Shown here in pieces: positions 4,127-58,339 of a DNA stretch of 64,000 nucleotides (position 1 is the stretch's first letter; each line of letters starts with the position of its first letter). Below the pieces are notes generated by a model. It saw nothing but the letters and a program-made list of their open reading frames with translations, had not been told where the DNA came from and did no database searches. The position numbers and the translations under genes are program-made. Origin of the DNA: an uncultured Clostridia bacterium (lineage in GTDB: Bacteria; Bacillota; Clostridia; Christensenellales; Aristaeellaceae). The stretch covers positions 22,187 through 86,186 of the forward strand of contig CAKUKM010000001.1 in the NCBI GenBank assembly GCA_934663595.1, given 5' to 3'.

Positions 4127-4494
4127 TTCTCGTCCTCGTATTCGTCAATCAGTTGGCGAATGCGATCGGCTTCTTCCTTCGTGATCGCCGCGCCGCCGGT
4201 AAATGCCTGCACCATGTCCGCGAGCGAGCCGGAAAACGTTCGCCTCAGAAACGATTGGCTTTCGCTCAACTGAATCGCCTCGCGGCTGATCAGCGATGTG
4301 ACCACCGAATCCTTTACCGCCAGAATGCCGCGGTCGCACAGCCTTTTCAGCTGTGTATACGTCGTTGTGCGCTTCCAATGGAGCTGCAGCGCGCATTGCT
4401 CGACCAGCGCGCGCGTCGTCATCGGCTCGTTTTCCCATACGATGCACGCGAGCTGGTATTCGGAATCAAATATTTTCGGCGAATTCATGCGCAT
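4123..4494 (-). CDS. BlaI/MecI/CopY family transcriptional repressor
   Basis: 123 aa with a winged-helix N-terminus (YQLACIVWENEPMTTRALVEQ...WKRTTTYTQLKRLCDRGIL). Paired with the M56 gene. Confidence 0.85.
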   Translation of the reverse strand: MRMNSPKIFDSEYQLACIVWENEPMTTRALVEQCALQLHWKRTTTYTQLKRLCDRGILAVKDSVVTSLISREAIQLSESQSFLRRTFSGSLADMVQAFTGGAAITKEEADRIRQLIDEYEDEK

Positions 4495-12457: not shown

Positions 12458-13616
12458 GGTTTTCCTCCCTGTAAGCATCGCGAATCAGCGGATAGAGCTT
12501 CTCCTCCGGATTCAGCGACATGTAATGACTCAATACATAATCAATTCCCTGTTCGCGCAGCGCCTTCTGGATTTCCGCGGCGCTCGCATCGTCCGCGCGG
12601 TCAAACCGCAGCGCGGCCAGAATGGTGCGCACGATCGGCGCGGGATCGACGTTTTCCTCCATTGCAAACAGCGCCGCGCCCACCAGACGGTCGTTTCGGC
12701 GCAGCTTGCGCACGGGATCCGCGCCCACGCGGGCCACGGTGTCCTTCAGCGCGCGATTGCGGAAGCGCTCGAGCAGATCGAGCACGTTGCCCTCGACATT
12801 TTCGCGCACGCCCTCGCCGAAGCGATGAATCAGCGCCTGCGCGCTCACCATCATGCTCGCCTTCGCGGCGGCGTAGATCTCGGGATCCTCGATCGCCTGC
12901 CAGATCATCTCATAGCTCTTCAGATTGCCCAGGTACGCGCACGTCGCATGGCCGCCGTTGTGCAGAAACAGCTTTCTTTTGATGTAAAACTCAAACGGCG
13001 AATACGGAACCAGCCCGGCAAGCTGCGGAATTTCGCCCTTGAACGCGTCTTTGTCCACCGGCAGCTCGCAATACGGCTCCACGCAGATCAGCAGCCGGTC
13101 CTTTGCGCGCATTTCCGGCGTGAGCGGCGGCACCATGCGCCCGATCGACGGCTCGACCAGACCGAGATTCTCGTCCGCCCAGCGCTTCTGCTCGTCGGTA
13201 AAGCATGCATACAGCCATTCGCGCATCAGCTTGTCCACTTCCAGCTGGTTTTCGCAGAGAATGATGTTCAGCGGCTTTCCGCCGCGCTCCATGCGCGCGA
13301 CAATGCCCTTTGCAATTGCCGGAGCGACGCGCGGCAGAATATTTACGCCCACGGCCGTGGCCATGATATCGCAGGTCGCGATTTCGTCGATCGCCTGATC
13401 GGTCGTGGAATTGACCGCGCGGACGGGCGCGACGCGCGTGTCCTGCTCGCCCTCGTTGGAAACGATGCGCACCGTGTATTCGCCGCGGCGATTCATTTCG
13501 TCGATCACGTCCTGCATGATGTCCAGAAACACGACCTCATAGCCCGAATCCGAGAAGACCTTGCCGATAAATCCGCGCCCGATGTTGCCCGCGCCGTACA
13601 TAACCGCCTTTTTCAT
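12450..13616 (-). CDS. mtlD: mannitol-1-phosphate 5-dehydrogenase family protein
   Basis: 388 aa. YGAGNIGRGFIGK, APAIAKG, ERKLFxxNxGHA-type motifs are colinear with MtlD. Confidence 0.85.
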   Translation of the reverse strand: MKKAVMYGAGNIGRGFIGKVFSDSGYEVVFLDIMQDVIDEMNRRGEYTVRIVSNEGEQDTRVAPVRAVNSTTDQAIDEIATCDIMATAVGVNILPRVAPAIAKGIVARMERGGKPLNIILCENQLEVDKLMREWLYACFTDEQKRWADENLGLVEPSIGRMVPPLTPEMRAKDRLLICVEPYCELPVDKDAFKGEIPQLAGLVPYSPFEFYIKRKLFLHNGGHATCAYLGNLKSYEMIWQAIEDPEIYAAAKASMMVSAQALIHRFGEGVRENVEGNVLDLLERFRNRALKDTVARVGADPVRKLRRNDRLVGAALFAMEENVDPAPIVRTILAALRFDRADDASAAEIQKALREQGIDYVLSHYMSLNPEEKLYPLIRDAYREENHV

Positions 13617-14759: not shown

Positions 14760-16625
14760 TCAGGAAAGCTCCTTCTTGCCGGTATACAATTCGTAATAGC
14801 GGCCCTTCAGCGCAAGCAGATCGTCGTGATCGCCGCGCTCGATGATCTCGCCGTTTTCGAGAACCATAATCGCGTTGGCGTTGCGAACGGTGGACAGGCG
14901 ATGGGCGATGACGAACGTGGTGCGGTTCTCCATCAGGTGATCCATGCCCTTTTCAATCAGCCGCTCGGTGCGGGTATCGACGGAGCTGGTCGCCTCGTCG
15001 AGCACCAGTATCGGCGCCTTGCTGAGCGCCGCGCGCGCGATATTGAGCAACTGCCGCTGACCCTGCGACAGGTTTGCGCCGTCGCCTTCGATTACGGTGT
15101 TGTAGCCGTCGGACAGGCGCTGAATGAAGCCGTCGGCGCTGGCCATCTTCGCCGCCTCGATCACCTCTTCGTCCGTCGCGTCCAGGCGGCCGTAGCGGAT
15201 GTTTTCCATGATCGTGCCGCTGAAGAGATGCGTGTCCTGCAGCACCATCGCGATGTTCTTCCTCAGGTAATCGCGCTTGAAATGGTGAATGTCGATGCCG
15301 TCGATCGTGATTGAGCCGGAATCGATATCATAGAAGCGATTCAGCAGGTTCGTGATCGTGGTTTTGCCCGCGCCGGTCGAGCCGACGAACGCGATTTTCT
15401 GGCCGGGCTTGGCATAGAGCGAGATGTGCTTGAGGATCGTCTTTCCCGGATTGTAGCCGAAGGTCACGTCGTCCAGAATCACATGGCCCTCGAGCTTCTC
15501 CGGTGCAACCGCGTCGGGCGCGTCGGGCGTTTCGGGATCGAGATCCATGATGCGGAACACGCGCTCCGCGCCGGCGAGAGCGGACAGGATCGTGCTCATC
15601 TGCTGCGAAATTTCGCTCACGGGGCGCGAGAACTGGCGCGAGTAATTCACAAATACGGCCAGGCCGCCGATATCGAACAGCCCCAGCGCGCACAGCACGC
15701 CGCCCACGCCCGCGGTCAGCGAATAGCTGATCTGGCTGGTATTGCCCATGACCGGGCCCATGATGCCGCCCAGGAACTGCGCCTTCTGCTGCTTGCCGCG
15801 CAGATCGTCGTTCAGGCGGCTGAATTCCTCAATGCAGGTTTCCTCGTGGCAGAAGACCTTTACGACCTTCTGGCCGGAGACGTTTTCCTCGATATAGCCG
15901 TTGACCGCGCCGAGCGCCGCCTGCTGGCCGAGATAGTATTTGCGGCTGTGCTTCATCAGCTTTCCGCCGCCGAGCGCGAATACCGGCAGGAACGCGACCG
16001 TAATCAGCGTAAGCCAGATGTTCGTAAAGATCATCATGGCGAGCGTGCCGACCAGCGTGAACGCGCCGGAGATCATCGAGGTGATCGACGAATCCAGCAT
16101 CGTTCCGATGTTGTCGACGTCGTTGGTGAAGCGCGACATGATTTCGCCGTTGGATTCATTGTCGAAAAAGCGAATCGGCAGCGTCTGCAGCTTCGTGAAC
16201 AGATCCTCGCGAATGCGCGCGATTGCGTTCTGGGAAACGCCGATCATCAGGCGGTTCTGCAGATACGTGCCGCCCACGCCCGCGAGGTAAACGCCGCCCA
16301 TAACGCCGATCATCGCCGCGAGGTAGGCAATGCGCTCGGAAGCAGGAATGCCGGCTTCCGCAATGCGGTTGATGATCGGGCGCAGCAGATACGAGCCCGC
16401 GACCGACGCGGCGGTGCTCACCAGCATGCAGGCGAACACGGCGATCAGCCGCTTTTTGAACATGCCGATATAGGTCAGAATCCGGCGAATGGTCGCGCCA
16501 GCGTTCTTGGGCTTGCCGGTGGCCATGCCGCGCGGCCCGCGCGGGCCCGGGCCGGCTTTTTTCTGCGGATCGGAGCGATGGCCGCCGTAGCGCGCGGTCA
16601 GGTTTTCAAGCGATCTTGCGGGCAT
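14760..16625 (-). CDS. ABC exporter, fused permease-ATPase (heterodimer half)
   Basis: 621 aa. N-terminal TM domain, GSTGAGKTT, LSQGQRQ, ILVLDEATS. Its ATG overlaps the upstream stop (TAATG). Confidence 0.9.
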   Translation of the reverse strand: MPARSLENLTARYGGHRSDPQKKAGPGPRGPRGMATGKPKNAGATIRRILTYIGMFKKRLIAVFACMLVSTAASVAGSYLLRPIINRIAEAGIPASERIAYLAAMIGVMGGVYLAGVGGTYLQNRLMIGVSQNAIARIREDLFTKLQTLPIRFFDNESNGEIMSRFTNDVDNIGTMLDSSITSMISGAFTLVGTLAMMIFTNIWLTLITVAFLPVFALGGGKLMKHSRKYYLGQQAALGAVNGYIEENVSGQKVVKVFCHEETCIEEFSRLNDDLRGKQQKAQFLGGIMGPVMGNTSQISYSLTAGVGGVLCALGLFDIGGLAVFVNYSRQFSRPVSEISQQMSTILSALAGAERVFRIMDLDPETPDAPDAVAPEKLEGHVILDDVTFGYNPGKTILKHISLYAKPGQKIAFVGSTGAGKTTITNLLNRFYDIDSGSITIDGIDIHHFKRDYLRKNIAMVLQDTHLFSGTIMENIRYGRLDATDEEVIEAAKMASADGFIQRLSDGYNTVIEGDGANLSQGQRQLLNIARAALSKAPILVLDEATSSVDTRTERLIEKGMDHLMENRTTFVIAHRLSTVRNANAIMVLENGEIIERGDHDDLLALKGRYYELYTGKKELS

Positions 16626-18358
16626 TAGGCTCCCTCCTTTTTATCGGTCTGAGAATAATAGATCTCCTGGTATTCGCGGTTGCTGCGCAGAAGCTCGTCG
16701 TGGGTGCCCACGCCGGTGATTCTGCCGTCGTCGAGCACGACGATCTTGTCCGCGTCGATGACGGACGAAATGCGCTGCGCGATGATGATTTTGGTCGAAT
16801 CCTTCAGGCTCGTCGCAAACGCCTCGCGAATGCGCGCCTCGGTGGCGGTGTCGACCGCGCTGGTCGAGTCGTCCAGAATCAGAATCTTCGGCTTTTTCAG
16901 AAGCGCGCGCGCAATGCACAGGCGCTGCTTCTGGCCGCCGGATACGTTCGAGCCGCCCTGATCGAGCACGTGCTCATAGCCGTCGGCAAACGAGCGAATG
17001 AAGCCGTCCGCCTGCGCGCTCTCGGCCGCCGCGGTCAGCTGCGCGTCCGTCGCCAGATCGTCGCCCCAGCGCAGGTTTTCCTCGATCGTTCCGGAGAAGA
17101 GCACGTTCTTCTGCAGCACCATGCCGACGCCCGTGCGCAGACGATTCAGATTGTAATCGCGCACGTTTACGCCGTCGACCAGAATCTCGCCCTCGTCCGC
17201 ATCGTAGAGGCGCGGAATCATCGAAACCAGCGTGGTTTTGCCGCAGCCGGTCGAGCCGACGACGCCGACCGTTTCGCCGGGATTGATCGTGAGGTTGATG
17301 TTGTCGAGCACCTTCCCGGGGCTGGTCTTGTAATAGCGGAAGGAGACGTTTTTGAATTCGATTTTGCCGGCCGTTACGTCCAGATCGGGGCAGGCGGCGT
17401 TTTCGTCGCTCAAATCGATCTTCTCATCCAGCACCTCCGAAATGCGCTTCGCGCTGGCGAGCGCGCGGGAGCTGTTCATGAAGATCATCGTGAGCATCAT
17501 CAGCGACATCAGGATCTGCGTAATATAGGTAATGAACGACGAAAGATCGCCCACGCTCAGCTGCGTGTTGATCACCATCTTGCCTCCGAACCAGATCACG
17601 GCCAGCGAGGTCAGGTTCATCATCAGCATCATCGCCGGCATCATCGTGACCATGACGTTCAACGCGCTCAGCGTCGTGTTCTTCAAATCCGTGTTCGTCT
17701 CGCGGAAGCGGTCGTTTTCATAGTCCTCGCGCACGAACGATTTGATCACGCGCTCGTTCGTCAGGTCCTCCTGAATGCGGGTGTTGAGCGCATCGATCTT
17801 CTTCTGCGTCTTCTGAAAGCGCGGATATCCGGTGCGGATCACGACGAACTGGATGATCACCAGCAGCGGAATCGTGACCGCCAGCACCTTCGCGAGGTCG
17901 GGGCTCAGCGAAATCGACGCAATCAGCGCGCCGATCAGCATGCCCGGCGAGCGCAGGCACATGCGCATCAGCATGTTGATCATGTTCATGATCTGGGTGA
18001 CGTCGTTCGTCAGGCGCGTGACCAGCGAGCCGGTCGAGAAGCGATCGATATTCGCAAACGAGAACTGCTGGATCTTTGCGTAAACGTCCCTGCGCACGTC
18101 GGCCGCGAAATTGACCGAGGCCTTCGACGCGTAATACGCACCGCCGATGCCGCCGGTCATCATCAGTATGGCTGTGAGCACCATGATCGCGCAGGCAATC
18201 ACGATGTAGGTCACGTTCTGCGTCGCCACGCCCGTATCAATGATCTTCGCGTAAATGCGCGGCAATACGATTTCGCCGATGACCTCGACGATCATGCACA
18301 GCGGCCCGATGATGAAATATTTCGTGTAGGGCCGCGCGTAATGGAGCCATCTTTTCAA
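16625..18358 (-). CDS. ABC exporter, fused permease-ATPase (heterodimer half)
   Basis: TTG start overlapping the marR stop (TTGA), so I shortened the track ORF. GSTGCGKTT, VSGGQKQ, ILILDDSTS. Confidence 0.85.
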   Translation of the reverse strand: MKRWLHYARPYTKYFIIGPLCMIVEVIGEIVLPRIYAKIIDTGVATQNVTYIVIACAIMVLTAILMMTGGIGGAYYASKASVNFAADVRRDVYAKIQQFSFANIDRFSTGSLVTRLTNDVTQIMNMINMLMRMCLRSPGMLIGALIASISLSPDLAKVLAVTIPLLVIIQFVVIRTGYPRFQKTQKKIDALNTRIQEDLTNERVIKSFVREDYENDRFRETNTDLKNTTLSALNVMVTMMPAMMLMMNLTSLAVIWFGGKMVINTQLSVGDLSSFITYITQILMSLMMLTMIFMNSSRALASAKRISEVLDEKIDLSDENAACPDLDVTAGKIEFKNVSFRYYKTSPGKVLDNINLTINPGETVGVVGSTGCGKTTLVSMIPRLYDADEGEILVDGVNVRDYNLNRLRTGVGMVLQKNVLFSGTIEENLRWGDDLATDAQLTAAAESAQADGFIRSFADGYEHVLDQGGSNVSGGQKQRLCIARALLKKPKILILDDSTSAVDTATEARIREAFATSLKDSTKIIIAQRISSVIDADKIVVLDDGRITGVGTHDELLRSNREYQEIYYSQTDKKEGA

Positions 18359-18840
18359 TTTAATGCACTTCCTTTCGCTTCTTCTTCCGCCTCGCAGGCA
18401 CGCAGATTTTGCTGCATGTGCTCCAGGCGCGCGCACAGGGTTTCGATTTCCTCTCGATCGAAGCCCTCGAACACGCGCTGATCCACCGCGTCAAAGGTGC
18501 GGCGCGTATCGTCCATCAGCTTTTTGCCCTTTTCCGAAATGCGCACGCTGTTGCGCCGGAGATCGCTCTTATCGTCGCTGCGCAGCACGTAGCCGTCCTC
18601 CACCAGACTTTTCAAAAGCCGCGTTACGCACGCGGGGCTCACGTCGAACCGCTCGGCGATCTCCTTTTGCGAATGCGGCTCGGTCGATTCGCTCAAAAAC
18701 ATCAGCACCTTCCGCTGGCTGCGGTGCACGCCCGAATCGCCGAATAATCGCTCGATCAGGCGATGATGCATCCGCGAATTGTGAATCAGAAGATCCATCG
18801 CGTGGTGCACCAGCTGCGCCCGATTCCGATCCTGTTCCAT
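18355..18840 (-). CDS. MarR family transcriptional regulator
   Basis: Winged-helix HSQKEIAERFDVSPACVTRLLKSLVEDGYV...RRNSVRISEKG. ATG 18840 preferred (AAGGAAGGAG upstream). The track ORF starts at TTG 18861. Confidence 0.85.
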   Translation of the reverse strand: MEQDRNRAQLVHHAMDLLIHNSRMHHRLIERLFGDSGVHRSQRKVLMFLSESTEPHSQKEIAERFDVSPACVTRLLKSLVEDGYVLRSDDKSDLRRNSVRISEKGKKLMDDTRRTFDAVDQRVFEGFDREEIETLCARLEHMQQNLRACEAEEEAKGSALN

Positions 18841-18867
18841 GCGCTCCTTCCTTTCTTTCAAAATTAT

Positions 18868-18925
18868 TTGACTAGTTGATAATTGACATGTTCTGAATTA
18901 TAGCATGCGATTGCAAATTGCGCAA
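18868..18925 (-). promoter_or_regulatory. marR promoter plus TTGAY direct repeats (candidate MarR box)
   Basis: Minus strand: TTGCGC (18925-18920), 17 nt, TATAAT (18902-18897). On the plus strand TTGAC/TTGAT/TTGAC occur at 18868, 18876 and 18883, in the leader. Confidence 0.45.
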
Positions 18926-19090
18926 CGAGGGGAATTGTAAAAAAACGCGCCCGCAGCGGCGAAATGCAAAAAATTAACATTCAAAAATCCGGAAAAGACA
19001 GAACAAAATGGAACGGACGGGTGTCCAATAGTTGAAGGATGCAAAGAAGCGCCCTTTGCCGAGAGTGAAACGGAAAGGAAGCCGATTGAA

Positions 19091-21145
19091 ATGAAAAAAA
19101 GCCTGATTGCCGCGATCGTCATCTGCCTGCTCGCGCAGCCGGTCTCCGGGGCGTTTGCCGAGGAGAATCTGCCCGTAGCGGTGGAGCAGGCGGTGGAAAC
19201 GGAAACGCCGACCGAGCAGCCGACGGAAAAACCGACGGAAGCGCCGACCGGAGCGCCCACGGAAAAGCCCGACGAGCAGCCGACGGAGCAGCCGACCGAA
19301 AAACCGACGGAGCAGCCCACGGAAAAGCCGACCGAGCAGCCGACGGAAGCGCCCACCGAAAAGCCGACCGAGTCGCCCACGGAGCAGCCGACGACGGCGC
19401 CGACCGAGCAGCCGACGACGGAGCCGACCGCCGCGCCCACGGAAGAACCGATGATTCCGGTTCCGGTCGTTTCCGATAAAAAGGAAATTCCGGAAACGGC
19501 CGAGGCGTGGATGTGCGCGGAGAACGGCTTCGCCTATGGAACGCTCGAGGATCTGATCGCCTGCGCGCAGCCGGGCGGCGAGCTTTTCCTGCATGTGGAA
19601 ACGGCAATGCGCCTGAAGGAAGCGCCGGTGCTGAAGCTGTCGGAGCTCAAATTCAGCCTGGACGAGGACGTTTTTAAGGGCGACGAATGGAAGATTACTT
19701 ATTTACAGGACGATCCGGAGAAGGCCGACGAGCCGCGCGAGCTGGACGCGAAGACGTTCAGGGACGCGAAGGAGGATCTCGTGATGGAGATGTTCATCCG
19801 CGTAGATTCCACGCACGTCGATCCGGAGCCGACGGAGGAGCCGACGATTCAGATTGAGGTTTCGGTCGACGAATACCGTGCCGGCGAATGGAGCCCGGTG
19901 CTGCCGACGTTCACGCTGTCCGGCAAGCCCGATGAAGAGGGCTATTCCTATGCGGTCGTGATTTACGACGAGCGCATCGCGGTGCTGTCCGAGGACGTTT
20001 ACGCCGCGGAAAAGGAGGGCGTGTACACCGTCCGGTTCGCGATTCTGAATGCGAAGGGCGATATCGTCTCCGCGTCCGATCGCTACACGCTCCTGCTGGA
20101 CGAAACGCTGCCCGAGGTTTCCGCGATGGTGGACGAGAGCATGGATTACACGCTGCGGATGAGCGCGAGCGACGCGCTGTCGGGCGTGAAGGAGTTTTCG
20201 ACCGACGGCGGACAGACGTGGACTCCGTTTGCGGACGGCGAGGAATGGGTGTATACCGCGCAGTCGAAGGTCACGGTCGCGCCCGGAATGCTGCAGGTGC
20301 GCGACGCGGCGGGCAACACCTGGCAGAACGACGAGGAATACGTGCTGGATAAGATTCCGTCGTTCCCGGGCGGGGGCGGCGGCGGTGGCGGCGGAGACGG
20401 CAAGAAGAAGCCGGATCACGCCGCAGGCGACAAAAAGGACGAGCCGGATTACGATACGGTGGAGCTCCAGTTCCCCGAGGAACCGATGACGACGCTGCAG
20501 ATGGGTGAAACGGAATTGCCGCTCACGCTGGAGCTGGCTGATCCCGGCAATTTCCAGAAGCCCGCCGATTATGAGGCGAAATTCTCCGCGGCGCTGCGCG
20601 CATGGCCGAAGCCGGCGGAATACGACGCGGACGGCAATCTCATTCCGCCCGAGGAAAATCCCGCGCCGGACACGCTGGTGCTGACCGCGATGGAAGAGGA
20701 CAACATGGGCGACCGCTTCGAATATCGCTGGAAGGTGAACGGCGAGGTGTTCCGCCTGCTCGAGAACAGCGGAATTCAGTATCTCGTATTCAATGTAAAC
20801 GACAACTACGCCGTGTTCCCGACCGCGGGCTTTACCGGCGGCACCGAATACACGACGCTCCGCATGAACGGCTTCTCGGTCAAGAAGTTCGATTATACGA
20901 TTTCGATGAGCGTCAACCTCGATCCCGATCACATTCCGGCGCTTTCCGAAACCGACCTGTCTGTGGACTGCGATATCGCGGTGCTGGTGCAGGCGGACGG
21001 CAGAAAATACGTAATGAGTGCCGAACAGAAGGGCGAGATGTACTTCTATGACGTTACTCTCGGCCCGGCGGAAATGCTGGAAGAGCCGTATGGAGCGTAT
21101 ACGGCGGGTTTAACGCAGATCGAAGATGGGAGGACGGTTGAATGA
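19091..21145 (+). CDS. secreted protein with PT-rich linker, Ig-like region and Gly9-Lys hinge; function unknown
   Basis: 684 aa. Signal peptide MKKSLIAAIVICLLAQPVSGAFA. No LPxTG or TM anchor. Its stop overlaps the next ATG (ATGA). Confidence 0.75.
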   Translation: MKKSLIAAIVICLLAQPVSGAFAEENLPVAVEQAVETETPTEQPTEKPTEAPTGAPTEKPDEQPTEQPTEKPTEQPTEKPTEQPTEAPTEKPTESPTEQPTTAPTEQPTTEPTAAPTEEPMIPVPVVSDKKEIPETAEAWMCAENGFAYGTLEDLIACAQPGGELFLHVETAMRLKEAPVLKLSELKFSLDEDVFKGDEWKITYLQDDPEKADEPRELDAKTFRDAKEDLVMEMFIRVDSTHVDPEPTEEPTIQIEVSVDEYRAGEWSPVLPTFTLSGKPDEEGYSYAVVIYDERIAVLSEDVYAAEKEGVYTVRFAILNAKGDIVSASDRYTLLLDETLPEVSAMVDESMDYTLRMSASDALSGVKEFSTDGGQTWTPFADGEEWVYTAQSKVTVAPGMLQVRDAAGNTWQNDEEYVLDKIPSFPGGGGGGGGGDGKKKPDHAAGDKKDEPDYDTVELQFPEEPMTTLQMGETELPLTLELADPGNFQKPADYEAKFSAALRAWPKPAEYDADGNLIPPEENPAPDTLVLTAMEEDNMGDRFEYRWKVNGEVFRLLENSGIQYLVFNVNDNYAVFPTAGFTGGTEYTTLRMNGFSVKKFDYTISMSVNLDPDHIPALSETDLSVDCDIAVLVQADGRKYVMSAEQKGEMYFYDVTLGPAEMLEEPYGAYTAGLTQIEDGRTVE
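19205..19450 (+). repeat. in-frame 12-nt (PTEx) tandem repeats, about 20 copies
   Basis: TPTEQPTEKPTEAPTGAPTEKPDEQPTEQPTEKPTEQPTEKPTEQPTEAPTEKPTESPTEQPTTAPTEQPTTEPTAAPTEEP. Confidence 0.9.
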
Positions 21146-22260
21146 GAAGGCATACCCGTTTCCTGGCGGCGCTGCTCGCGGCGCTCGCCCTGTCCGTGCC
21201 GGCCAATGCGGCGATCAGCTTTGAGGGCAAGGTCGTTTCCAGCGAGTCGGTCGCGGTGCTTGCGCCGTTCGGCGGACTGACGGATTCCGTTGAGCTGCGC
21301 GCGGGCGATCCGGTGAAGGTCGGCGATCCGGTCGCGACCATTTCCACAACCAAGGTCTACGCGACGGCGGACGGCATGGTCAGCGGCGTGTTTGCGCGCG
21401 AGGGCGATTCCACCGAGGGCATCGTCGAGCGCTATGGCGCGGTGGTCTATATCGAGCCCACCAATCGCTATAAGATCGCCGCGACGACCGAGAAGGCGTA
21501 CAACAGCAGCGACACGAAGTACATTCACATCGGCGAGAAGGTCTATGTCTCCTGCGCGAAGGACGGCACGCACACCGGCACCGCGGTCGTGACCGCCATT
21601 TCCGATGTGGACGAATCCGGCAATACCCCGTACAAGCTCGAGGTGACCGGCGGCGATTTCTACATGGCCGAGACGGTGGGCATTTACCGCAGCCGCGATT
21701 ATTCCGCCGATTCCAGAATCGGCCGCGGAACGATTCAGCAGACGGCGGCGATCGCCGTAAAGGGCTCGGGCAGCGTTCTGAAGATGCATGTTGCCGACGG
21801 CGACAAGGTCGAGCGCGGCGAGCTGCTGTTTGAAACGGTGGACGGCGATCTGGACGGCCTGTACGCAATGGACAACACGATCGTGTCCGCGGTTTCCGGC
21901 GTGGTCGCGTCGGTCGATACCAAGCCCGGCGATTCGGTCTCGAAGGGCGCGAAGCTGATTACCGTGTATCCGGACGGCTCGTTCCAGATCGAGGTCAACG
22001 TTTCCGAAATGGATTTGAATTCCATCCACGAGGGCGATAAGGTTTCGATCGAATTCGAGTTTGACGCCGACGGCGAGCTGCGCCTGGACGGCACGGTCGC
22101 GTCGATCTCGCGCGTGAATATCGCCGAGGAGGGCGCGTCGGCCGCATCGAGCGCGGAATACAGCGCCTATATCAATTTCGAGGAAACCGACCAGGTGCGC
22201 CTGGGCATGTCCGTGATCGTTTACACGCAGGCGGACGAGCCGCTCGACAAGGGCGAATAA
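21142..22260 (+). CDS. HlyD/membrane-fusion-protein-like adaptor lacking a long coiled-coil hairpin
   Basis: 372 aa with an N-terminal signal/anchor. Two lipoyl-like motifs (VLAPFGGLTDSVELRAGDPVKVGDPVATI and VKGSGSVLKMHVADGDKVERGELLFET), then a beta-barrel-like C-terminus. Confidence 0.65.
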   Translation: MRRHTRFLAALLAALALSVPANAAISFEGKVVSSESVAVLAPFGGLTDSVELRAGDPVKVGDPVATISTTKVYATADGMVSGVFAREGDSTEGIVERYGAVVYIEPTNRYKIAATTEKAYNSSDTKYIHIGEKVYVSCAKDGTHTGTAVVTAISDVDESGNTPYKLEVTGGDFYMAETVGIYRSRDYSADSRIGRGTIQQTAAIAVKGSGSVLKMHVADGDKVERGELLFETVDGDLDGLYAMDNTIVSAVSGVVASVDTKPGDSVSKGAKLITVYPDGSFQIEVNVSEMDLNSIHEGDKVSIEFEFDADGELRLDGTVASISRVNIAEEGASAASSAEYSAYINFEETDQVRLGMSVIVYTQADEPLDKGE

Positions 22261-22282
22261 TCATTAAGGGAGTGAAGAAGAA

Positions 22283-24562
22283 ATGAAGAAGCTTTTATGT
22301 ATGCTTCTGTGCCTGATGCTGCTGATTCCCGCGGCGGCGTTTGCGGCGCAGGGCGATGTAACCATGTCCACCACGAGCGGACAGCTCGAACAGTACGGAG
22401 TGGAGAACGGTTTTCGCTCGTTCTGCGCTGCGGGCGACACGCTTTATATGCTGACCTACGACGGCAAGCTCCTGACCCACAAGGTGGGCGACGCGGAGCC
22501 GAAGGTGTATACCTCCGACATGAATCAGGAGAGCGGCGCGGACGAGACCTACTCGTACTATACCCATGCGAACTATTACATGTTTTCGGCGAACGACAAG
22601 GTTTACGTGCTCAAGAGCGTGACGCAGTACAACGGCGAAACGGGCACGGAGAGCGTTACCTCCGCATCGATGAACGAGCTGACGTTCTCCGGCGATCATG
22701 CCGCGCTCAACGCGCTGTTTGACGTGAATATGGAATCGATGCGCACGTCCGAGGGCTACATGCCGTATCTGCAGTATCTCGTGGGCGCGGGCGATTACCT
22801 GGTGATGTATTCCGACGACGGCAGCAGCGCCTCCGCGGGCGTATGGGCCATGAGCCTGACCGACGGCAGCATGAAGCGCATCGACGTAGCGCCCGCCGGC
22901 AATTACCTGATGTCGCTTGCGCTGTATAAGGACAATACGGTGCTGACCCAGATATGGGAAAACAACGGACAGAGCGTGGGCTTCTATGCGATTGATCCCG
23001 CGGCGGGCACGTCCGCGCAGGTTTCGAGCGTTCCGGTGGAGTCGTATGAATCCTTCTCCGGTATTGCGACCGATCAGGCGACGGGCACGGTCTATTGCGT
23101 CAAGGGCGGCGAGATCCGCACGCTGGACGTCATGACCGGCGAAGTAGGCGAGGGCATTACCGATATCGTGGCCGACAACGGCAACGGCTTCATCCTCACC
23201 GGCGGCTTCTATGCGGCGGCGGATTACCAGAGCTATTCGCTGCGCAACATCAATCCCGGCCAGCAGAGCAATCGCAAAATGAAGATCTCATCCTCGAGCT
23301 GGGGAAACAACATTGACGCGGCGTATTATACGTTCGCCAACGCGCACGGCGATGTGTCCGTCGTGTATTCCCACGACTATTCGGAATATGAGAATCTGAT
23401 TCAGGATATGATGAATCGGGATTCCAGCATCGACGTGTACATTCTTTCCACGTCCAATTCGACCTTCTCGGCGCTGTATCAGCGCGGCTATCTCGCGGAC
23501 TTTTCGGACAGCGAAAAGCTCATGCAGCTCGCGAACGCGATTCAGCCGGAGCTCCTCGAGCAGCTCAGCGTAAACGGCCGGTTCAGCGTGCTTCCGGTGA
23601 GCGGATATTTCTATCTGCCGTTTATGAATCGCGCGGCGCTGGAAAAGGCCGGCATTTCGACTGAGGAAATTCCGACCAACTGGGCCGATTTCCTGGAATG
23701 GCTGCCGACGCTCGCGGGCCGTCTGCCCGACGGCATGTCGCTGCTGGATCCGTGGACGAGCGCTTCTGATGCACGCATGTCGATATTCTATCAGATCTTC
23801 CAGTGCTATCAGAACCATCTGGAAAACGATCCGAACAGCGTCAGCGCAAACGACATGGTTTCCATTCTCGAAGCGCTCGATCGCGTGGATTTCAGCGCCC
23901 TCGGCCAGCCGAGCGACGAGCAGATTCGATCCGACAACTATTCGCCGGAATGGAACGAAGAGGGCATCCTGATGGAGCTGAACTCCGGCCGCTCGATCAG
24001 CGGCATGGCCACAAAGTACTATCCGCTGGTCATGAGCCTGAAAAACGGTCTCCCGCACATGCTGACTATGGATGCGGCGGTTGCGATCATCAATCCGTTC
24101 AGCAAGAACGTCGATCTGGCGCTTCAGTTCCTCGAAACGCTGGCGGACAAGATGGAGGACGAGACCGCCTATACGATCCGCACCGACAAGACCGAGCCGA
24201 CTCCGAACAAGTGGTACGAGCAAAACATGCAGGAAATGCAGAAATATGTCGACCAGCTCAAGAAGCAGATCGAGACGGCCGAGGCGGTCAACAAGCAGCA
24301 GCTTGAGGAAACGCTGAAGCAGGCGGAAACTGCGATGAAGGAGATGGAGAGCGATCGCTGGTCGATCTCTGAAGCCGATATCGCATGGATGAGCGAGCAT
24401 CGCGCCGAGCTTGGCCTGGCGGGCGACAACTGGCTTTACAGCGACAATACCGGCGACGGCGCCACGCTGATTCAGCAGTATCTCGACGGCCAGATCGACG
24501 CCAGCCGCCTGATGAAGGAAGTAGACCGCAAGGTGCGCATGCGCATTATGGAAGGCGCATAA
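22283..24562 (+). CDS. oversized extracellular solute-binding protein fusion (N-terminal repeat module + SBP + coiled coil)
   Basis: 759 aa with a signal peptide. The central region resembles sugar-type ABC SBPs (ENLIQDMMNRDSSIDVYIL...RGYLADF...PVSGYFYLPFMNRAALEKAGI). Confidence 0.7.
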   Translation: MKKLLCMLLCLMLLIPAAAFAAQGDVTMSTTSGQLEQYGVENGFRSFCAAGDTLYMLTYDGKLLTHKVGDAEPKVYTSDMNQESGADETYSYYTHANYYMFSANDKVYVLKSVTQYNGETGTESVTSASMNELTFSGDHAALNALFDVNMESMRTSEGYMPYLQYLVGAGDYLVMYSDDGSSASAGVWAMSLTDGSMKRIDVAPAGNYLMSLALYKDNTVLTQIWENNGQSVGFYAIDPAAGTSAQVSSVPVESYESFSGIATDQATGTVYCVKGGEIRTLDVMTGEVGEGITDIVADNGNGFILTGGFYAAADYQSYSLRNINPGQQSNRKMKISSSSWGNNIDAAYYTFANAHGDVSVVYSHDYSEYENLIQDMMNRDSSIDVYILSTSNSTFSALYQRGYLADFSDSEKLMQLANAIQPELLEQLSVNGRFSVLPVSGYFYLPFMNRAALEKAGISTEEIPTNWADFLEWLPTLAGRLPDGMSLLDPWTSASDARMSIFYQIFQCYQNHLENDPNSVSANDMVSILEALDRVDFSALGQPSDEQIRSDNYSPEWNEEGILMELNSGRSISGMATKYYPLVMSLKNGLPHMLTMDAAVAIINPFSKNVDLALQFLETLADKMEDETAYTIRTDKTEPTPNKWYEQNMQEMQKYVDQLKKQIETAEAVNKQQLEETLKQAETAMKEMESDRWSISEADIAWMSEHRAELGLAGDNWLYSDNTGDGATLIQQYLDGQIDASRLMKEVDRKVRMRIMEGA

Positions 24563-24564
24563 AT

Positions 24565-24668
24565 CAAACGGGCGCGCCGGCTGAAGGGAACAGCGCTGCA
24601 CTGCAAATGGAGAAGGGGTTCGCCACATGCGGTGCAGCGGTTCCCGCAAACGGCCCGGGGCGCGTTTG
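24565..24668 (+). other. large imperfect hairpin between the SBP and permease genes
   Basis: Outer arms CAAACG (24565-70) / CGTTTG (24663-68). Inner arms GGGAAC..CTGCAC (24586-) / GTGCAG..GTTCCC (-24645). No U-tract follows. Confidence 0.5.
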
Positions 24669-24694
24669 AATGAAGAAGTAGGGGGAAGACGAGC

Positions 24695-25549
24695 GTGTTT
24701 ACCAGGAAAAAATCGGTATGGCTGTTTCTGCTGCCAGGCCTTGCCGGACTGATGCTGTTTTACGTCGTTCCGTTTCTCGGCGGCATATGGTACAGCTTGA
24801 CGGACGGCACCTATCGAAACGCGTTCGTCGGGCTTCAGAATTACATGAATATCTGGCGGAACGGCATGTTTTTGCTGGGCCTGAAGAACACGATGCTGCT
24901 GTCGCTGATCTGCGCGCCGACGGTGTGGGTGCTGTCGTTCGTGATCGCGGCGCTTTTGAATCGCCTGCGCCCGAACGGCGCGTTTTTCCGAAACAGCATA
25001 TTGCTCCCGTATCTGATGCCGTCGTCGGCGATGCTGCTGATCTGGCTGCTGCTGTTTGATTACGGCGGCGTGATCAACCGGCTGCTTACGTATCTCGGCC
25101 TCGAGCGCGTGATCTGGCTGGAGGGCGCGGAGCTGCGCGTTCCGATCATATTGCTGTTCATCTGGAAAAATCTGGGCTTCGCGGTGATCATTTTCCTCGC
25201 GGCGCTGCAGACGATTCCGGAGCCGCTGTATGAATACGCGCGCCTCGAGGGCGCGAGCTTCATGCGGCAGACGTTTGGGATCACGCTGCCGATGATCGTG
25301 CCGAGCGCGTTCCTGATCATCATTCTGGAATGGATCAACGCGTTCAAGATCTTCAAGGAGGTCTATTTTATCGGCGGCGCGTATCCGGACGAGGCGGTGT
25401 ATACGCTTCAGAATTTCATGAACAACCTTTACAGCAAGCTCAATTATCAGACCGTCACGACCGCGGCGTACAGCTTTGCGATCATCGTGTTCGCGCTGTT
25501 CGGAGCGCTGTTCCTTACGCAGCGCGCGCTGCTGCGCAAGTTCAGTTAG
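24695..25549 (+). CDS. ABC importer permease, MalF-type
   Basis: 284 aa with GTG start. Six hydrophobic segments. EAA loop EYARLEGASFMRQTFGITLP. Confidence 0.85.
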   Translation: MFTRKKSVWLFLLPGLAGLMLFYVVPFLGGIWYSLTDGTYRNAFVGLQNYMNIWRNGMFLLGLKNTMLLSLICAPTVWVLSFVIAALLNRLRPNGAFFRNSILLPYLMPSSAMLLIWLLLFDYGGVINRLLTYLGLERVIWLEGAELRVPIILLFIWKNLGFAVIIFLAALQTIPEPLYEYARLEGASFMRQTFGITLPMIVPSAFLIIILEWINAFKIFKEVYFIGGAYPDEAVYTLQNFMNNLYSKLNYQTVTTAAYSFAIIVFALFGALFLTQRALLRKFS

Positions 25550-25562
25550 GAGGCGGCGCGAG

Positions 25563-26438
25563 ATGAAGAAAAAGCTGCGTAATCAATCGCCGAAGGGGCG
25601 GCATACGGGTGCGCGGGCGCTGCTGATGCTGCTGGCGCTGCTGATGCTGATCCCCATTGCGGTCACGATGCTGTATTCGTTCTTCTCCCCGGAGGAGATC
25701 AAGACCTATATGCAGACGCGCGGCAGCTTCGACGTCGAAAAGTGGATGGACGTCAAGCTCTCGCCGAAGATGTTTTCGCTCAGCCAGTATTATCAGATCC
25801 TGATTACCGATACGTCGATACTCAAGATGTTTGTCAATTCGGCGTTTTACACCGTCGCGATCCTGCTGGGACAGGCGGTGGTGGTGCCGATGATGGCGTA
25901 TGCACTCAGCCGGTTCAACTTCAGGGGCCGCGAGGCGATCTTTTTCATGATCCTGATGCTGATGCTGCTGCCGTTCCAGGTCACGATGGTGCCGAACGTG
26001 CTGACGCTCAGGCAGCTCGGGCTGCTGAATACGGTGTGGGCGGTCATATTGCCGATGTGGTTTTCGCCGTTTTACATCTTCCTGATTCGCCAGTTCATGA
26101 TCGGCCTTCCGAACGAGCTGATCGAGGCGGGCGAGATGGATGGCGCGGGCACGGTGCGGTGCTATATCCACATCGTGCTGCCGGTATGCCGCCCGGTGAT
26201 CGGCGCGGCGGTCGCGCTGTCGTTTGCGGACTGCTGGAATCTGGTCGAGCAGCCGATGACGTATCTGAGCCAGAATACCGAACTGCAGCCGCTGTCTGTC
26301 ATGTTCAATCAGCTGGTGGATCAGAGCACGGGCATCGAGTTTGCCGGCGCGGCGATCTACATACTGCCGGCGCTGTTCGTGTATCTGTATTTCCTGAAGG
26401 ACATCCTGACGGGCATCCAACTGACGGAGCTGAAATAA
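25563..26438 (+). CDS. ABC importer permease, MalG-type
   Basis: ATG 25563 after AGGAGG (the track ORF starts upstream, inside the previous gene). EAA loop ELIEAGEMDGAGTVRCYIHIVLP. Confidence 0.85.
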   Translation: MKKKLRNQSPKGRHTGARALLMLLALLMLIPIAVTMLYSFFSPEEIKTYMQTRGSFDVEKWMDVKLSPKMFSLSQYYQILITDTSILKMFVNSAFYTVAILLGQAVVVPMMAYALSRFNFRGREAIFFMILMLMLLPFQVTMVPNVLTLRQLGLLNTVWAVILPMWFSPFYIFLIRQFMIGLPNELIEAGEMDGAGTVRCYIHIVLPVCRPVIGAAVALSFADCWNLVEQPMTYLSQNTELQPLSVMFNQLVDQSTGIEFAGAAIYILPALFVYLYFLKDILTGIQLTELK

Positions 26439-26453
26439 GAGGTGTGAAGACGA

Positions 26454-27788
26454 ATGAACCTGAAAAAATTTGCGCTGCGCGGGCTGGCGATTCTGGCGGT
26501 GTTCGTGGCGCTGTGCATGTTCTTCTCCGGCACGATTAAAACCATTACCACCGCGAAGATCAAGATCACGCGCGGTCGCTCCGGACGGCTGGAGGAGAAG
26601 ATACAGCTGACCGGCAAGCTCACCTTCCCGGACGTGGTCAAGGTCGGCTATCCGCTCGAGGACGGCCAGACGATTCAGATCACGAAGGTCAATTTCCGCC
26701 CCGGCTACACCGTAAACGAGGGCGACGTGGTCATTCAGGCGCGCGTGGCCAACTACGACGAAACGATGAAGGGCTATCAGTCCGATTACAGCTCGGCGCT
26801 CGAAACGCTGCAGCAGCTCGAGAGCAAGAACGCAAACATTCGCCTGCGCCGCACCGATACGGCATATGCGGACGCGTATTTCGGTCTGCGCGACGCGCGG
26901 CGCGACACCGTTTCCAAGCGCATTGCGATGAATACGCTTCTGAATCGCGAGGGACTGACGCTGCCCGAGACCGGCGCGCCGGAGGGCGCGAGCGACGCGC
27001 TGATTCAGGCGATCAGCGATTATCGCGCCGCAGTGCAGGCCGAGACGGCCGCCGAATCCGCAATGCAGCAGGTCGAGCGCTATGCGCCCGAGGAGAGCGT
27101 CTGGACGTATATCACCGAAAAGCGCGCGGCAGAGGACAAGATCAGCGATCTGGAGGCCAAAATGGAGGCGCTCGGCGTGCTCAACGGCAGCGTCCAGCAG
27201 ATCACCGCGCCGAACGGCGGCTATATCGCCGAGGTGCTGGTGAAGGAGGGCGATAATTACGACGGCGCGAGCGAGCTGTTTACGCTGACGCAGCCGGAGA
27301 CGATGCCCGTGCTTCGCGCGGATCTGACCGGAATTGACAAAACGGTGACGCAGGGCATGACCGTGACCATCAGCGGCGGAAATTTCGGCGATATGGAAAC
27401 GACCGTTGCAAACGTCGGCATCGATCAGGAGGGTAAAAAGTACGCGGACGTGACGCTTACGCAGGATGTGATTTCCTCGCTGGGCTCGGTGTATTCGATG
27501 ACGCTCGAGGACACGCCGATGACGCTGGTCAATCGCGCGCGGCAGAACACGATGCTGCTGACCACCAGCGCCATTCACGGAACCGGCAATAACCGCTATA
27601 TCTATACCGTCGATACCAGCTATTCCAGCTTCGGCAATTCCACCATGACCGTGCGCAAACAGACCGTGACCGTGCTTGCAGAGGCGGACGGCGTCGCTTC
27701 GATTCAGGAGGACATGAGCTGGTACGACATCGCCTACATGGAGGATCGCCCGATCAACGACGGAGACACCGTCATGCTCTACGAGTAA
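26454..27788 (+). CDS. HlyD family adaptor (membrane-fusion protein) with coiled-coil hairpin
   Basis: 444 aa. N-terminal TM, lipoyl-like halves flanking a helical segment of about 150 aa, and a C-terminal barrel. Confidence 0.7.
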   Translation: MNLKKFALRGLAILAVFVALCMFFSGTIKTITTAKIKITRGRSGRLEEKIQLTGKLTFPDVVKVGYPLEDGQTIQITKVNFRPGYTVNEGDVVIQARVANYDETMKGYQSDYSSALETLQQLESKNANIRLRRTDTAYADAYFGLRDARRDTVSKRIAMNTLLNREGLTLPETGAPEGASDALIQAISDYRAAVQAETAAESAMQQVERYAPEESVWTYITEKRAAEDKISDLEAKMEALGVLNGSVQQITAPNGGYIAEVLVKEGDNYDGASELFTLTQPETMPVLRADLTGIDKTVTQGMTVTISGGNFGDMETTVANVGIDQEGKKYADVTLTQDVISSLGSVYSMTLEDTPMTLVNRARQNTMLLTTSAIHGTGNNRYIYTVDTSYSSFGNSTMTVRKQTVTVLAEADGVASIQEDMSWYDIAYMEDRPINDGDTVMLYE

Positions 27789-27807
27789 ACGCACCTGGGA
27801 GGCGCAC

Positions 27808-28947
27808 ATGAAAAAGAGAAGATGGCGCGCAATGCCGGTGGTATTGATCGTGCTGGGACTGCTGCTTGCGATTCCCTCGGGCGTAAAGCTCGCAACCACG
27901 CGGGAAACGCTGGAATACGCGCTTCCCGCACCGGATGGCGATGCGACGGACGCGATCGACGCGATGGTAAAGGCGCGCGACACGCTTTCCGAGCAGCTCG
28001 CCGACTGCGCGGAGACGGTTGCGGCGAGCGCGATTTGCGAAACCAGTTCCGTTTCCGCCGGCGACAAAAGCGCGAGTGCGACGATTTACGGCGCGGGCGA
28101 GGGCTGGTTCGAGGTGTATCCCGCGTTTCTGAAAAGCGGGCGCAGAATCAGCGAAACGGAGCTCAAGGCGGGCGACACGGTCGCGATGCTGGATGAATCG
28201 CTCGCGTTTCAGCTCTTCGGCGAGGATTTGAACGAGGATTCCACCGTCGATATCGGCGGGGCGAGCTATCGCGTGGTCGGAACGTTTCAGCACGGGCGCA
28301 GCGTGGGCGAAACGGGTGAATATGCGGCGATCGTGCCGGTAAACGCCGCGAAGGCGGAGAAATGGACGACTTTGATGATCTCGGCCAAACCGATTCCGGA
28401 GTCCGGCGCGCGCACGATGTTCGATTCCTCCGTGCCGACGGCATGGCGCGAGGGCAGCAGCAGCCTGAGCCTTGAAAAAGAGGCGATGCGGCGGCTGATT
28501 CTGCCGCGGATGCTGCTGTTTGTATTCGGCCTTACCGCAATTCTCGCGCTGCTCAGGCGCATGAACGGAGTTGCCGCGCGGAGAATCGCATGGTATCGCG
28601 ACGCGATCCGGTGGAACTATTTTAAAAAGACGATTCCGCAGCTGCTCGCCGTGATCGGCATTTGCCTGGCGGGCTACGGCGCGATTCTCGCGCTGCTGAG
28701 CGCGCTGATGGCGTTCACGATTCAGCCGCTGTATGTGTTCACCGAATGGGTGCCGGACAATTTCGTGGCGTGGTCGTCGCTGAAAAAGGTGTTCTGGAGC
28801 CTCGCGAGCGAGCATGCGGCGCTGGTTCGCGTGGGCACGCCCGGAATGCGCGCAATCGAGTTCGAGGGCGGCATTCTGCGCTGGGGTGTGATCAGCGCGA
28901 TGACGGGCGCAATCCTGATGCGCGTGAAAAAACCGAAGAAGGCATAA
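27808..28947 (+). CDS. MacB/FtsX-type ABC permease (4 TM plus extracytoplasmic core domain), no adjacent ATPase
   Basis: 379 aa. TM1, then a MacB_PCD-like region (GDTVAMLDESLAFQLFGEDL...IGGASYRVVGTF), then three C-terminal TM segments. Confidence 0.6.
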   Translation: MKKRRWRAMPVVLIVLGLLLAIPSGVKLATTRETLEYALPAPDGDATDAIDAMVKARDTLSEQLADCAETVAASAICETSSVSAGDKSASATIYGAGEGWFEVYPAFLKSGRRISETELKAGDTVAMLDESLAFQLFGEDLNEDSTVDIGGASYRVVGTFQHGRSVGETGEYAAIVPVNAAKAEKWTTLMISAKPIPESGARTMFDSSVPTAWREGSSSLSLEKEAMRRLILPRMLLFVFGLTAILALLRRMNGVAARRIAWYRDAIRWNYFKKTIPQLLAVIGICLAGYGAILALLSALMAFTIQPLYVFTEWVPDNFVAWSSLKKVFWSLASEHAALVRVGTPGMRAIEFEGGILRWGVISAMTGAILMRVKKPKKA

Positions 28948-28951
28948 TCTC

Positions 28952-28986
28952 AATCGGCGTTGAAGCAATTTTGACGCCGATTTTTC
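28952..28986 (+). terminator. intrinsic terminator ending the 19.1-28.9 kb operon
   Basis: AATCGGCGT-loop-ACGCCGATT followed by T-run. Confidence 0.75.
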
Positions 28987-29006
28987 ATTGCGCGATTCGC
29001 CTGCGC

Positions 29007-29036
29007 TTGATTTTTTTACGCGGAATATCTTATAAT
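29007..29036 (+). promoter_or_regulatory. promoter for pfkA
   Basis: TTGATT, 18 nt, TATAAT. Confidence 0.55.
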
Positions 29037-58207: not shown

Positions 58208-58277
58208 TTTCATTCTCCTAAACGCATTTGTAATTATATTAAAATTCGAGCAGCGGCACGGCGAATCCTGCCGGCGC

Positions 58278-58306
58278 TTGAAAAAAGCGCGAACTTTGGA
58301 TAAAAT
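58278..58306 (+). promoter_or_regulatory. promoter for tmcAL
   Basis: TTGAAA, 17 nt, TAAAAT. Confidence 0.55.
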
Positions 58307-58339
58307 AGACAAAGAGTATTGCCCATCGGAGGTGCGCAG

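Follow-up and report, generated by a model that had tools for sequence, protein, structure and literature searches.

A conserved seven-gene envelope cluster of uncultured Clostridia links importer-type permeases to an adaptor and a MacB-fold protein encoded without an ATPase gene

We combined profile searches, structure models, and comparative genomics to characterize a cluster of seven genes (A to G) in a 64,000-nucleotide stretch of DNA from an uncultured Clostridia bacterium of the family Aristaeellaceae (contig CAKUKM010000001.1), referred to here as the window. The cluster encodes three secreted proteins (A, B, and C), two importer permeases (D and E), a membrane-anchored adaptor (F), and a protein with the fold of the MacB permease (G). 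These parts belong to known families, namely CUT1 importers, adaptors, and MacB-fold proteins. The cluster is nevertheless one conserved module and not two neighboring transporters, and its genes are strictly co-inherited without a gene for an ATP-binding cassette (ABC) ATPase among them. An earlier reading of the window, made from the sequence only, knew of no described system with this architecture, and our full-text literature searches agree in that they found no description of MalFG-type permeases obligately linked to an adaptor and an ATPase-less MacB-fold protein, nor any relevant account of FtsX/MacB proteins that lack an ATPase. We tentatively favor a reading of the cluster as one envelope machine, in which a CUT1 importer is powered in trans and F and G form an ATPase-less scaffold for A, B, and C; we hold this to be a substantial possibility that stops short of being probable.

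The evidence for a single module comes from its distribution. Searches with a profile of G identified 59 loci in species-representative genomes, and the comparison covered 124 loci, metagenome loci among them. The order A-B-C-D-E-F-G was found in 43 of the 59 species-level genomes, with C sometimes duplicated or triplicated. The remaining 16 loci end at contig edges and none of them breaks the order, so the seven genes are syntenic in related genomes, a point on which the sequence-only reading had made its proposal depend. All 59 loci come from uncultured organisms of the gut or rumen and, where named to phylum or below, from Clostridia, save for one archaeal label and two entries labeled "bacterium". 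The archaeal label belongs to a 2.8-kb contig (L006, CAZWKY010000076.1) that was binned into the metagenome-assembled genome of a Methanomassiliicoccales archaeon. Its F and G proteins are 52-56% identical to those of the window, and the contig has most likely been misbinned from a Clostridia genome.

Identity to the proteins of the window is highest for the permeases (61-95% for D and 66-94% for E), followed by B (48-87%), F (36-92%), G (30-79%), A (30-73%), and C (23-68%). Across the loci of species and metagenome lineages, the identity of G drops to 27-30% with the gene order still kept. All seven genes are under purifying selection, with ratios of nonsynonymous to synonymous substitution rates (dN/dS) of 0.05-0.30 against two relatives. 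The flanking genes, by comparison, vary among lineages, and the pair of marR and exporter genes found beside the cluster in the window is common only to close relatives. Because the flanks differ between lineages, the module itself is the inherited unit.

The composition of the module was further delimited by its more distant members. An exhaustive search recovered 164 representative G clusters at an E-value of 1e-30 or better, which make up a well-defined family marked by recognizable motifs. A deeper lineage, with loci collected by a profile of longer G proteins and found mostly in human-gut metagenomes, has the arrangement C-C-D-E-F-G in 24 loci. Gene A is absent from all of the deeper-lineage loci and B-like genes occur only once, in L113, where two tandem B-like adaptor genes follow G (L113:1068-4474, order F-G-B-B). 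Their position after G indicates that B is linked to F and G independently of gene order. The invariant core of the module is D-E-F-G, usually accompanied by C, and A and B are additions in the lineage of the window.

Conservation within the cluster is highest in D and E (dN/dS of 0.05 and 0.06, respectively), which were confirmed as MalF/MalG-type permeases with readable EAA loops. Both match BPD_transp_1 (PF00528), at 52 and 51 bits, respectively (cut-off 26). D is a permease of the MalF/UgpA type with the EAA loop EYARLEGASFMRQTFGITLP and has UgpA and GlcT as its best NCBIfam matches; E is of the MalG/UgpE type, with the EAA loop EAGEMDGAGTVRCYIHIVLP and best matches to UgpE, GlcU, and MalG. 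The solved structures nearest to D are AlgM1 (7.7e-19), then SugA and MalF. Apart from the EAA loops of the two permeases, the module has no recognizable ATPase-docking element.

C had been described as a secreted fusion of a solute-binding protein, and this description was borne out. It is a divergent family-1 solute-binding protein with a match to SBP_bac_8 over residues 352-631 (50.7 bits, cut-off 27), preceded by an N-terminal extension of about 330 residues and followed by a helical or coiled C-terminal part. The closest PDB match is the sugar-binding protein 4rk2. Among 23 homologues of C, 12 match SBP_bac_8 and one matches the SGL propeller family within the N-terminal extension, which is probably a beta-propeller. 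C and its homologues have AxA signal peptides with no lipobox, and cysteine is wholly absent from many of the C signal peptides. Taken together, C, D, and E show all of the CUT1 features that we tested except the usual lipid or transmembrane (TM) tether of a monoderm binding protein. We also observed that C is tandem-duplicated or triplicated in several species (L001:2180-6830; L007:2-6667; L040:1852-6736; L020:12604-14853). The copies are only 30-40% identical to the C of the window, and D through G remain single-copy; the divergence of the copies suggests a diversification of ligand or partner specificity.

F carries the N-terminal membrane anchor proposed for it, and its proposed identity as an adaptor was recovered at one level and not at another. 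It scored below every Pfam and NCBIfam adaptor cut-off, with 17.8 bits for HlyD_D23 (cut-off 30), 15 for HlyD_3 (cut-off 22), and 27.5 for RND_mfp (cut-off 94.9). The profile of the F family, when compared with the PDB, matched the MacA/MexA chimera 4dk1 (E-value of 8.5e-5) over residues 42-160 and again over residues 246-311, a match that spans the barrel-sandwich domain and the first hairpin helix. A long helical insert lies at residues ~97-245. F and B are homologous in the sandwich/barrel region, with a probability of 81% in hhalign. The N-terminal TM helix of F (VALCMFFSGTI.TI.T.KV) is near-invariant in all loci, including those of the distant metagenome lineages, and this near-invariance suggests that the helix makes a specific contact inside the membrane. 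As the most conserved candidates, D and E may be the partners in this contact.

For G, a MacB/FtsX-type permease had been proposed. The MacB part of this proposal stood, with a MacB_PCD match at 57 bits (cut-off 27) and a MacB fold in both AlphaFold and Foldseek; the FtsX part did not, as no match to FtsX (PF02687) was obtained for G even at an E-value of 0.1. Profile comparison with the PDB matched MacB in the periplasmic domain only. The AlphaFold model of G (predicted local distance difference test, or pLDDT, of 76; predicted template modeling score of 0.68) consists of TM1, a small periplasmic core domain, TM2, TM3, and TM4. In Foldseek it matched MacB 5gko at 1.4e-11, and also 5lil, 5xu1_M, Spr0695, LolE, and YbbP, over ~390-440 alignment columns. 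As modeled, G is a MacB-fold (type VII ABC) protein whose membrane domain has diverged strongly.

In the MacB family, the permease contacts its ATPase by way of three elements: a major coupling helix that lies between TM2 and TM3, a minor one that follows TM4, and an amphipathic helix ahead of TM1 (PMC5985334). In the single, medium-confidence model of G, the helices at residues 231-269 and 275-314 (TM2 and TM3) are continuous and joined by a five-residue turn, and neither a separate coupling helix nor a C-terminal minor coupling helix is seen. With at most 8 residues before TM1 and ~6 after TM4, the protein has almost no cytoplasmic mass. The cytoplasmic TM2-TM3 segment has one of the lowest conservation scores in G (0.35) and the TM helices are weakly conserved; the highest score (0.66) belongs to the extracytoplasmic TM3-TM4 loop (PLYVFTEWVPxN), which is much longer than the short "shoulder" of MacB. 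The dN/dS of G is 0.16-0.18. The distribution of conserved residues suggests that the essential contacts of G lie outside the cytoplasm.

Ten longer G representatives (P0275, P0277, P0286, P0290, P0294, P0297, P0321, P0330, P0337, and P0368) have an extra cytoplasmic C-terminal domain of ~170 residues. Fusion to an ATPase was considered for these proteins and rejected, since the extra domain matches SCP2_2 (PF13530) and not an ATPase. SCP2_2 is a sterol-carrier-like domain that is also found in Eis-type acetyltransferases. The long-G lineage occurs mostly in human-gut metagenome contigs (loci L068-L105, e.g., L068:9938-11602). In L096, a locus that encodes D-E-F-G, the gene that follows G (11620-12891) has a start resembling that of a GNAT/Eis-type acetyltransferase, as judged by a look at its sequence only.

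A motif scan found neither Walker A nor LSGGQ in the open reading frames (ORFs) of the cluster, and the Walker A result matches what had been noted before. The sole ABC ATPase domains in the window are those of two upstream exporter genes, which are divergent from the cluster and lie behind marR. No ABC ATPase domain was found inside any of the 124 clusters by motif scan and by BLAST with an ATPase-domain query, which argues against the possibility, raised in the sequence-only reading, that ordinary transporters had simply lost their ATPase genes in the window. Neighboring ATPases occur occasionally and were typed with NCBIfam as DrrA/ABC-2 or lantibiotic-protection ATPases, not as the MacB/LolD/FtsE type. 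In one genome (L008), a UgpC/MalK-type ATPase (471 bits, cut-off 432) is encoded 9 kb from the cluster among unrelated genes. It is common for CUT1 importers of Firmicutes to draw on a shared MsmX-type ATPase that is encoded elsewhere (PMC7658222). The missing ATPase gene is therefore ordinary for the importer half, and only the missing ATPase of G is unusual.

The first two genes of the cluster encode further secreted proteins. A was confirmed as a secreted protein with a PT-rich linker by its signal peptide and a match to the PT repeat in Pfam. From the N-terminus, it consists of a type-I signal peptide, the PT-rich linker (~residues 40-130), an alpha/beta domain, two beta-sandwiches resembling immunoglobulin (Ig) or fibronectin type III domains, a poly-Gly hinge, and a C-terminal alpha/beta domain. 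The AlphaFold model of A is well supported (pLDDT 84.6). Homologues are conserved from residues ~133/245 to 672 (~430-540 residues) and vary in the N-terminal linker; the dN/dS is 0.13-0.20. The conserved part had no Pfam or PDB match in sequence or profile searches, and Foldseek returned only generic Ig/Fn3 matches and no enzyme fold. At residues ~424-436 (window positions 20360-20400), where the second Ig-like domain gives way to the C-terminal one, A has a run of 8-9 glycines that is kept in the consensus of the A alignments. Such a run is unusual for a linker and suggests a functionally required hinge.

B matches HlyD_3 at 82 bits (cut-off 22) and HlyD_D23 at 50 bits (cut-off 30), and profile searches matched LipC, MacA, and EmrA at 1e-10 to 1e-6 in the barrel-sandwich and beta-barrel only. 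The proposal of an HlyD-type adaptor lacking the hairpin was thus upheld, as the regions aligned to the PDB include no alpha-hairpin. Its proposed signal anchor was not: B has no obvious membrane anchor, and its N-terminus is a cleavable-type signal peptide, with an AxA motif in all homologues. The dN/dS of B is 0.09. The signal peptides of A, B, and C are of the AxA (signal-peptidase-I) type in all homologues, and none of the three proteins has a lipobox, a C-terminal sortase motif, or a C-terminal TM segment. In a monoderm, secreted proteins without an anchor of their own would be lost unless partners hold them. F and G are the only membrane proteins of the cluster with large outside domains.

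In our favored reading, C would hand its ligand, probably an oligosaccharide or a piece of glycan, to the permeases D and E, and a shared ATPase of the MalK/MsmX type, encoded elsewhere, would energize the pair in trans. The parts would be physically associated, and import would be the direction of transport. F and G would not be an independent pump but permanent accessory subunits of D-E, and would build a scaffold or cage in the wall zone from their large extracytoplasmic domains. In the lineage of the window, the secreted, hairpin-less B and the Ig-domain protein A would join this scaffold, which would hold and position the secreted subunits without a lipid, sortase, or wall anchor. The analogy used here is with the periplasmic domains of LolC, FtsX, MacB, and YbbP, which recruit LolA, EnvC, MacA, and TesA, respectively.

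Several points weigh against this reading. A pure scaffold does not obviously explain the retention of a complete MacB fold. The low conservation of the cytoplasmic loop of G is no more than suggestive, and the model of G was built on 14 sequences, with the TM3-TM4 loop (residues 312-342) below a pLDDT of 50. Two loci (L116 and L096) have D-E-F-G without an adjacent C, so linkage of the binding protein is not universal. Neither a glycoside hydrolase nor a gene of sugar catabolism travels with the cluster, and a sugar ligand is a guess at the level of the family. The survey of ATPase genes was confined to the window and the 124 loci. With respect to the ligand, one distant locus (L063:7052-8893) has, ~1.1-2.9 kb upstream of A, genes that resemble NagB (Glucosamine_iso) and NagA (Amidohydro_1). 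These amino-sugar genes are the only hint of a sugar-catabolic neighbor and are not conserved elsewhere.

Each half of the cluster has well-known relatives. F and G are like the Gram-positive MacAB-like pumps (B. subtilis YknXYZ, S. pneumoniae Spr0693-0694-0695, and E. faecalis AS-48FGH) and E. coli MacAB in that the membrane-anchored adaptor combines a barrel-sandwich domain with a helical hairpin region, the permease has four TM helices with a MacB-type periplasmic core between TM1 and TM2, and the adaptor gene lies directly upstream of the permease gene. They differ from these pumps in that no YknY/Spr0694-like ATPase or fused MacB ATPase domain is encoded in the 124 loci, the G protein fails the FtsX profile and has minimal cytoplasmic segments, and the F-G pair is always in an operon with MalFG-type permeases. 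In addition, the TM3-TM4 loop of G is long and highly conserved, in contrast to the short shoulder of MacB (PMC5985334). The importer half is like the CUT1 importers of Firmicutes and Actinobacteria that use a shared ATPase, such as B. subtilis AraNPQ/MsmX and those served by S. pneumoniae MsmK and Streptomyces MsiK (PMC7658222), in having a family-1 solute-binding protein, two BPD_transp_1 permeases with EAA loops, and no ATPase in the operon. Unlike in those importers, the binding protein is 759 residues long with an N-terminal extension of ~330 residues and is not a lipoprotein, the cluster always encodes an adaptor and a MacB-fold protein as well, and no catabolic or glycoside-hydrolase genes are attached.

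Three other systems share single features with the cluster. The closest solved relative of D is AlgM1, from the alginate importer of Sphingomonas sp. A1 (AlgM1-AlgM2-AlgS with AlgQ1/Q2). AlgM1M2SS is a type I importer that depends on a solute-binding protein and takes up a polymer-sized ligand. Unlike the cluster, it has its own ATPase gene, belongs to a diderm envelope, and includes no adaptor or MacB-like subunits. By functional analogy, the cluster is also like the type VII systems LolCDE-LolA, FtsEX-EnvC/PcsB/CwlO, and YbbAP-TesA, in which a MacB-type outside domain docks a secreted protein (e.g., PMC12646458, PMC7668044). Those systems have a dedicated ATPase (LolD, FtsE, or YbbA), whereas G has no ATPase gene. 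In Pseudomonas TriABC-OpmH, two different adaptors, TriA and TriB, serve a pump of the RND family in a diderm. The cluster likewise encodes two distinct adaptor-family proteins, B and F, with homologous barrel-sandwich/beta-barrel cores; unlike the TriABC-OpmH adaptors, B is secreted, lacks the hairpin, and is absent from the deeper lineages of the module other than L113.

Other readings of the cluster were weighed against the same evidence. F and G could be a genuine MacAB-type (type VII ABC) exporter or mechanotransducer, served by an unlinked ATPase of the FtsE/MacB/LolD type and only functionally coupled to C-D-E. For example, a toxic by-product or peptide could be expelled, or a wall enzyme activated, while the importer takes up the product. 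The MacB fold of G with its MacB periplasmic core domain and the MacA-like character of F, including an N-terminal TM helix as in MacA, are in line with such a pump. We counted in its favor a weak NCBIfam match of G to TIGR03434, the "ADOP" family of FtsX-type permeases encoded apart from any ATPase gene. Adaptor genes of Gram-positive bacteria also typically sit with macB homologues (PMC5985334). We nonetheless consider a separate pump unlikely: an ATPase of the right type is in or beside the cluster in none of the 124 loci, the linkage of D-E-F-G across deep divergence is stricter than functional coupling usually gives, and long G forms bear the SCP2-like cytoplasmic domain in place of an ATPase. 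The cytoplasmic face of G is, moreover, minimal, poorly conserved, and modeled without the coupling helices known from MacB (PMC5985334). A different possibility is that the ATPase cycle of D-E passes through membrane contacts to G and an adaptor ring of F (and B), so that one importer-type engine moves a MacB-style "bellows" outside the membrane, which threads or pulls a large polymer across the wall zone to the binding protein, or opens and closes an adaptor cage. In favor of this idea, what purifying selection has kept is a full MacB fold and not a mere tether. The idea would also agree with the invariance of the D-E-F-G core, with EAA loops in D and E as the only ATPase-docking motifs of the module, with the strong conservation of the extracytoplasmic loop of G and the TM helix of F, and with the alginate permease AlgM1 as the closest solved relative of D. 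Such transmission is without precedent and entirely inferential, however, and the TM helices of G are weakly conserved; we rate it as rather unlikely.

The remaining readings give the importer-type parts a different role or none in common with F and G. The cluster could assemble or anchor a surface structure made of A (and B), or export a wall polymer or exopolymer, with importer-type parts that act in a non-canonical way. A is secreted and has multiple Ig-like domains and a long linker, as a surface fiber or adhesin would, it is translationally coupled to B by an ATGA overlap, and some distant loci have glycosyltransferase, Wzx-like, and dTDP-sugar genes next to them, judging by the ORF sequences. 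These neighbors are not conserved, however, and A, B, and C carry Sec signal peptides and need no ABC exporter. Deeper lineages also keep C-D-E-F-G without A and, except for L113, without B. Furthermore, export is not known to have been shown for any pair of MalFG-type permeases that has EAA loops and a binding protein of its own, and we judge this reading to be quite improbable. Chance adjacency of an unrelated importer and a degenerate pump would account for the fact that the part families normally work in separate machines, but it has next to no likelihood. The same order is present in every sufficiently long locus of 59 species and the metagenome lineages, the flanks are unrelated between lineages, and all genes are under purifying selection, so that chance adjacency is effectively refuted by the synteny data.

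The coordinates of the cluster and its boundaries are listed in Table 1. They agree with the earlier description of seven co-directional ORFs joined by a 4-nt overlap or by gaps of 13-22 nt, plus one gap of 132 nt. The strong terminator reported after G was also found, as a 14-bp stem with a 3-nt loop and a T-run at 28952-28982; the stem is retained in the centroid fold. The next gene, for phosphofructokinase, starts at 29076 and has its own promoter-like site at 29007-29036 in a sigma-70 scan. At the other end, the divergent marR gene is present as described, and the promoter region claimed between marR and A has no sigma-70-like site in a simple consensus scan and no Rfam match. We read the cluster as a single operon because of its tight packing and its terminator, the sigma-70 scan being empty upstream of A.

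Table 1. Positions of the cluster genes and associated elements in the window
Feature	Position	Strand	Description
marR	18355-18861	minus	Divergent from gene A; MarR Pfam matches
Intergenic region marR-A, presumed promoter region	18862-19090	+	Promoter inferred from position only
A	19091-21145	+	684 aa, secreted
B	21142-22260	+	372 aa; 4-nt ATGA overlap with A
C	22283-24562	+	759 aa; 22-nt gap after B
C-D intergenic long stem-loop	24563-24694	+	132 nt, inside the cluster
D	24695-25549	+	284 aa; GTG start; 132-nt gap after C
E	25563-26438	+	291 aa; 13-nt gap after D
F	26454-27788	+	444 aa; 15-nt gap after E
G	27808-28947	+	379 aa; 19-nt gap after F
Intrinsic terminator closing the cluster	28952-28992	+	Stem and T-run

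The gap between C and D is structured, as had been suggested, and folds into a hairpin of -66.5 kcal/mol (z = -4.46); none of 200 shuffled sequences folds as well. The hairpin has no T-run after its stem and matched no Rfam family. It is not conserved, since the C-D gap is 6 nt in distant loci. In the window, it might act on transcript stability or processing and so set how much binding protein is made relative to permease.

On the minus strand upstream of the cluster (14760-18861), the MarR regulator gene is followed by two genes for half-transporters with ABC_membrane and ABC_tran domains, which form a heterodimeric exporter divergent from the cluster. We considered these upstream genes as parts of the system and rejected them, as they are kept only in close relatives (L003/L005 and L065) and the flanks differ elsewhere; they are probably an independent regulon. 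A mobile or island origin of the cluster was also rejected, since its G+C content is in line with that of its surroundings and its neighbors are housekeeping genes.

Other genes of the window deserve brief mention. A BlaR1-like M56 sensor-peptidase gene (2609-4494, minus strand) lies downstream of a 123-residue ORF (4123-4494) that may be a candidate BlaI-type repressor of it, and a 628-residue wall-associated protein with VanW, PG_binding_4, and G5 domains is encoded at 35869-37755 (plus strand). Both the BlaR1-like gene and the VanW protein have ordinary envelope functions and no evident link to the cluster. A 462-residue ORF at 57215-58603 (minus strand) contains a thymidine kinase domain (residues 135-309) and a C-terminal GNAT acetyltransferase domain (residues 341-432). 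Either this is an unusual fusion, or the mechanical ORF call has run through two genes.

The usual view is that ABC importers and MacB-type mechanotransmitters are distinct machines and that each has an ATPase of its own. In this cluster, both are inherited as one unit, and the MacB-type half is never accompanied by an ATPase gene. The module is spread over dozens of uncultured Clostridia species from gut and rumen, among them lineages that are abundant in the human gut. If the ATPase cycle of the importer were indeed transmitted to F and G, then D-E-F-G would be an ABC machine of a new class. It would serve as a powered conduit across the monoderm wall zone, or as a device that captures there, for a large ligand, and would for the first time connect the architecture of type I importers with that of type VII mechanotransmission. 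Should the parts make up a single complex, the cluster would add an accessory architecture that is new for monoderm nutrient uptake, extend the role of Gram-positive adaptors beyond efflux, and exemplify a MacB fold that works without its own motor, and it would explain how binding proteins that are not lipidated are retained at the cell surface.

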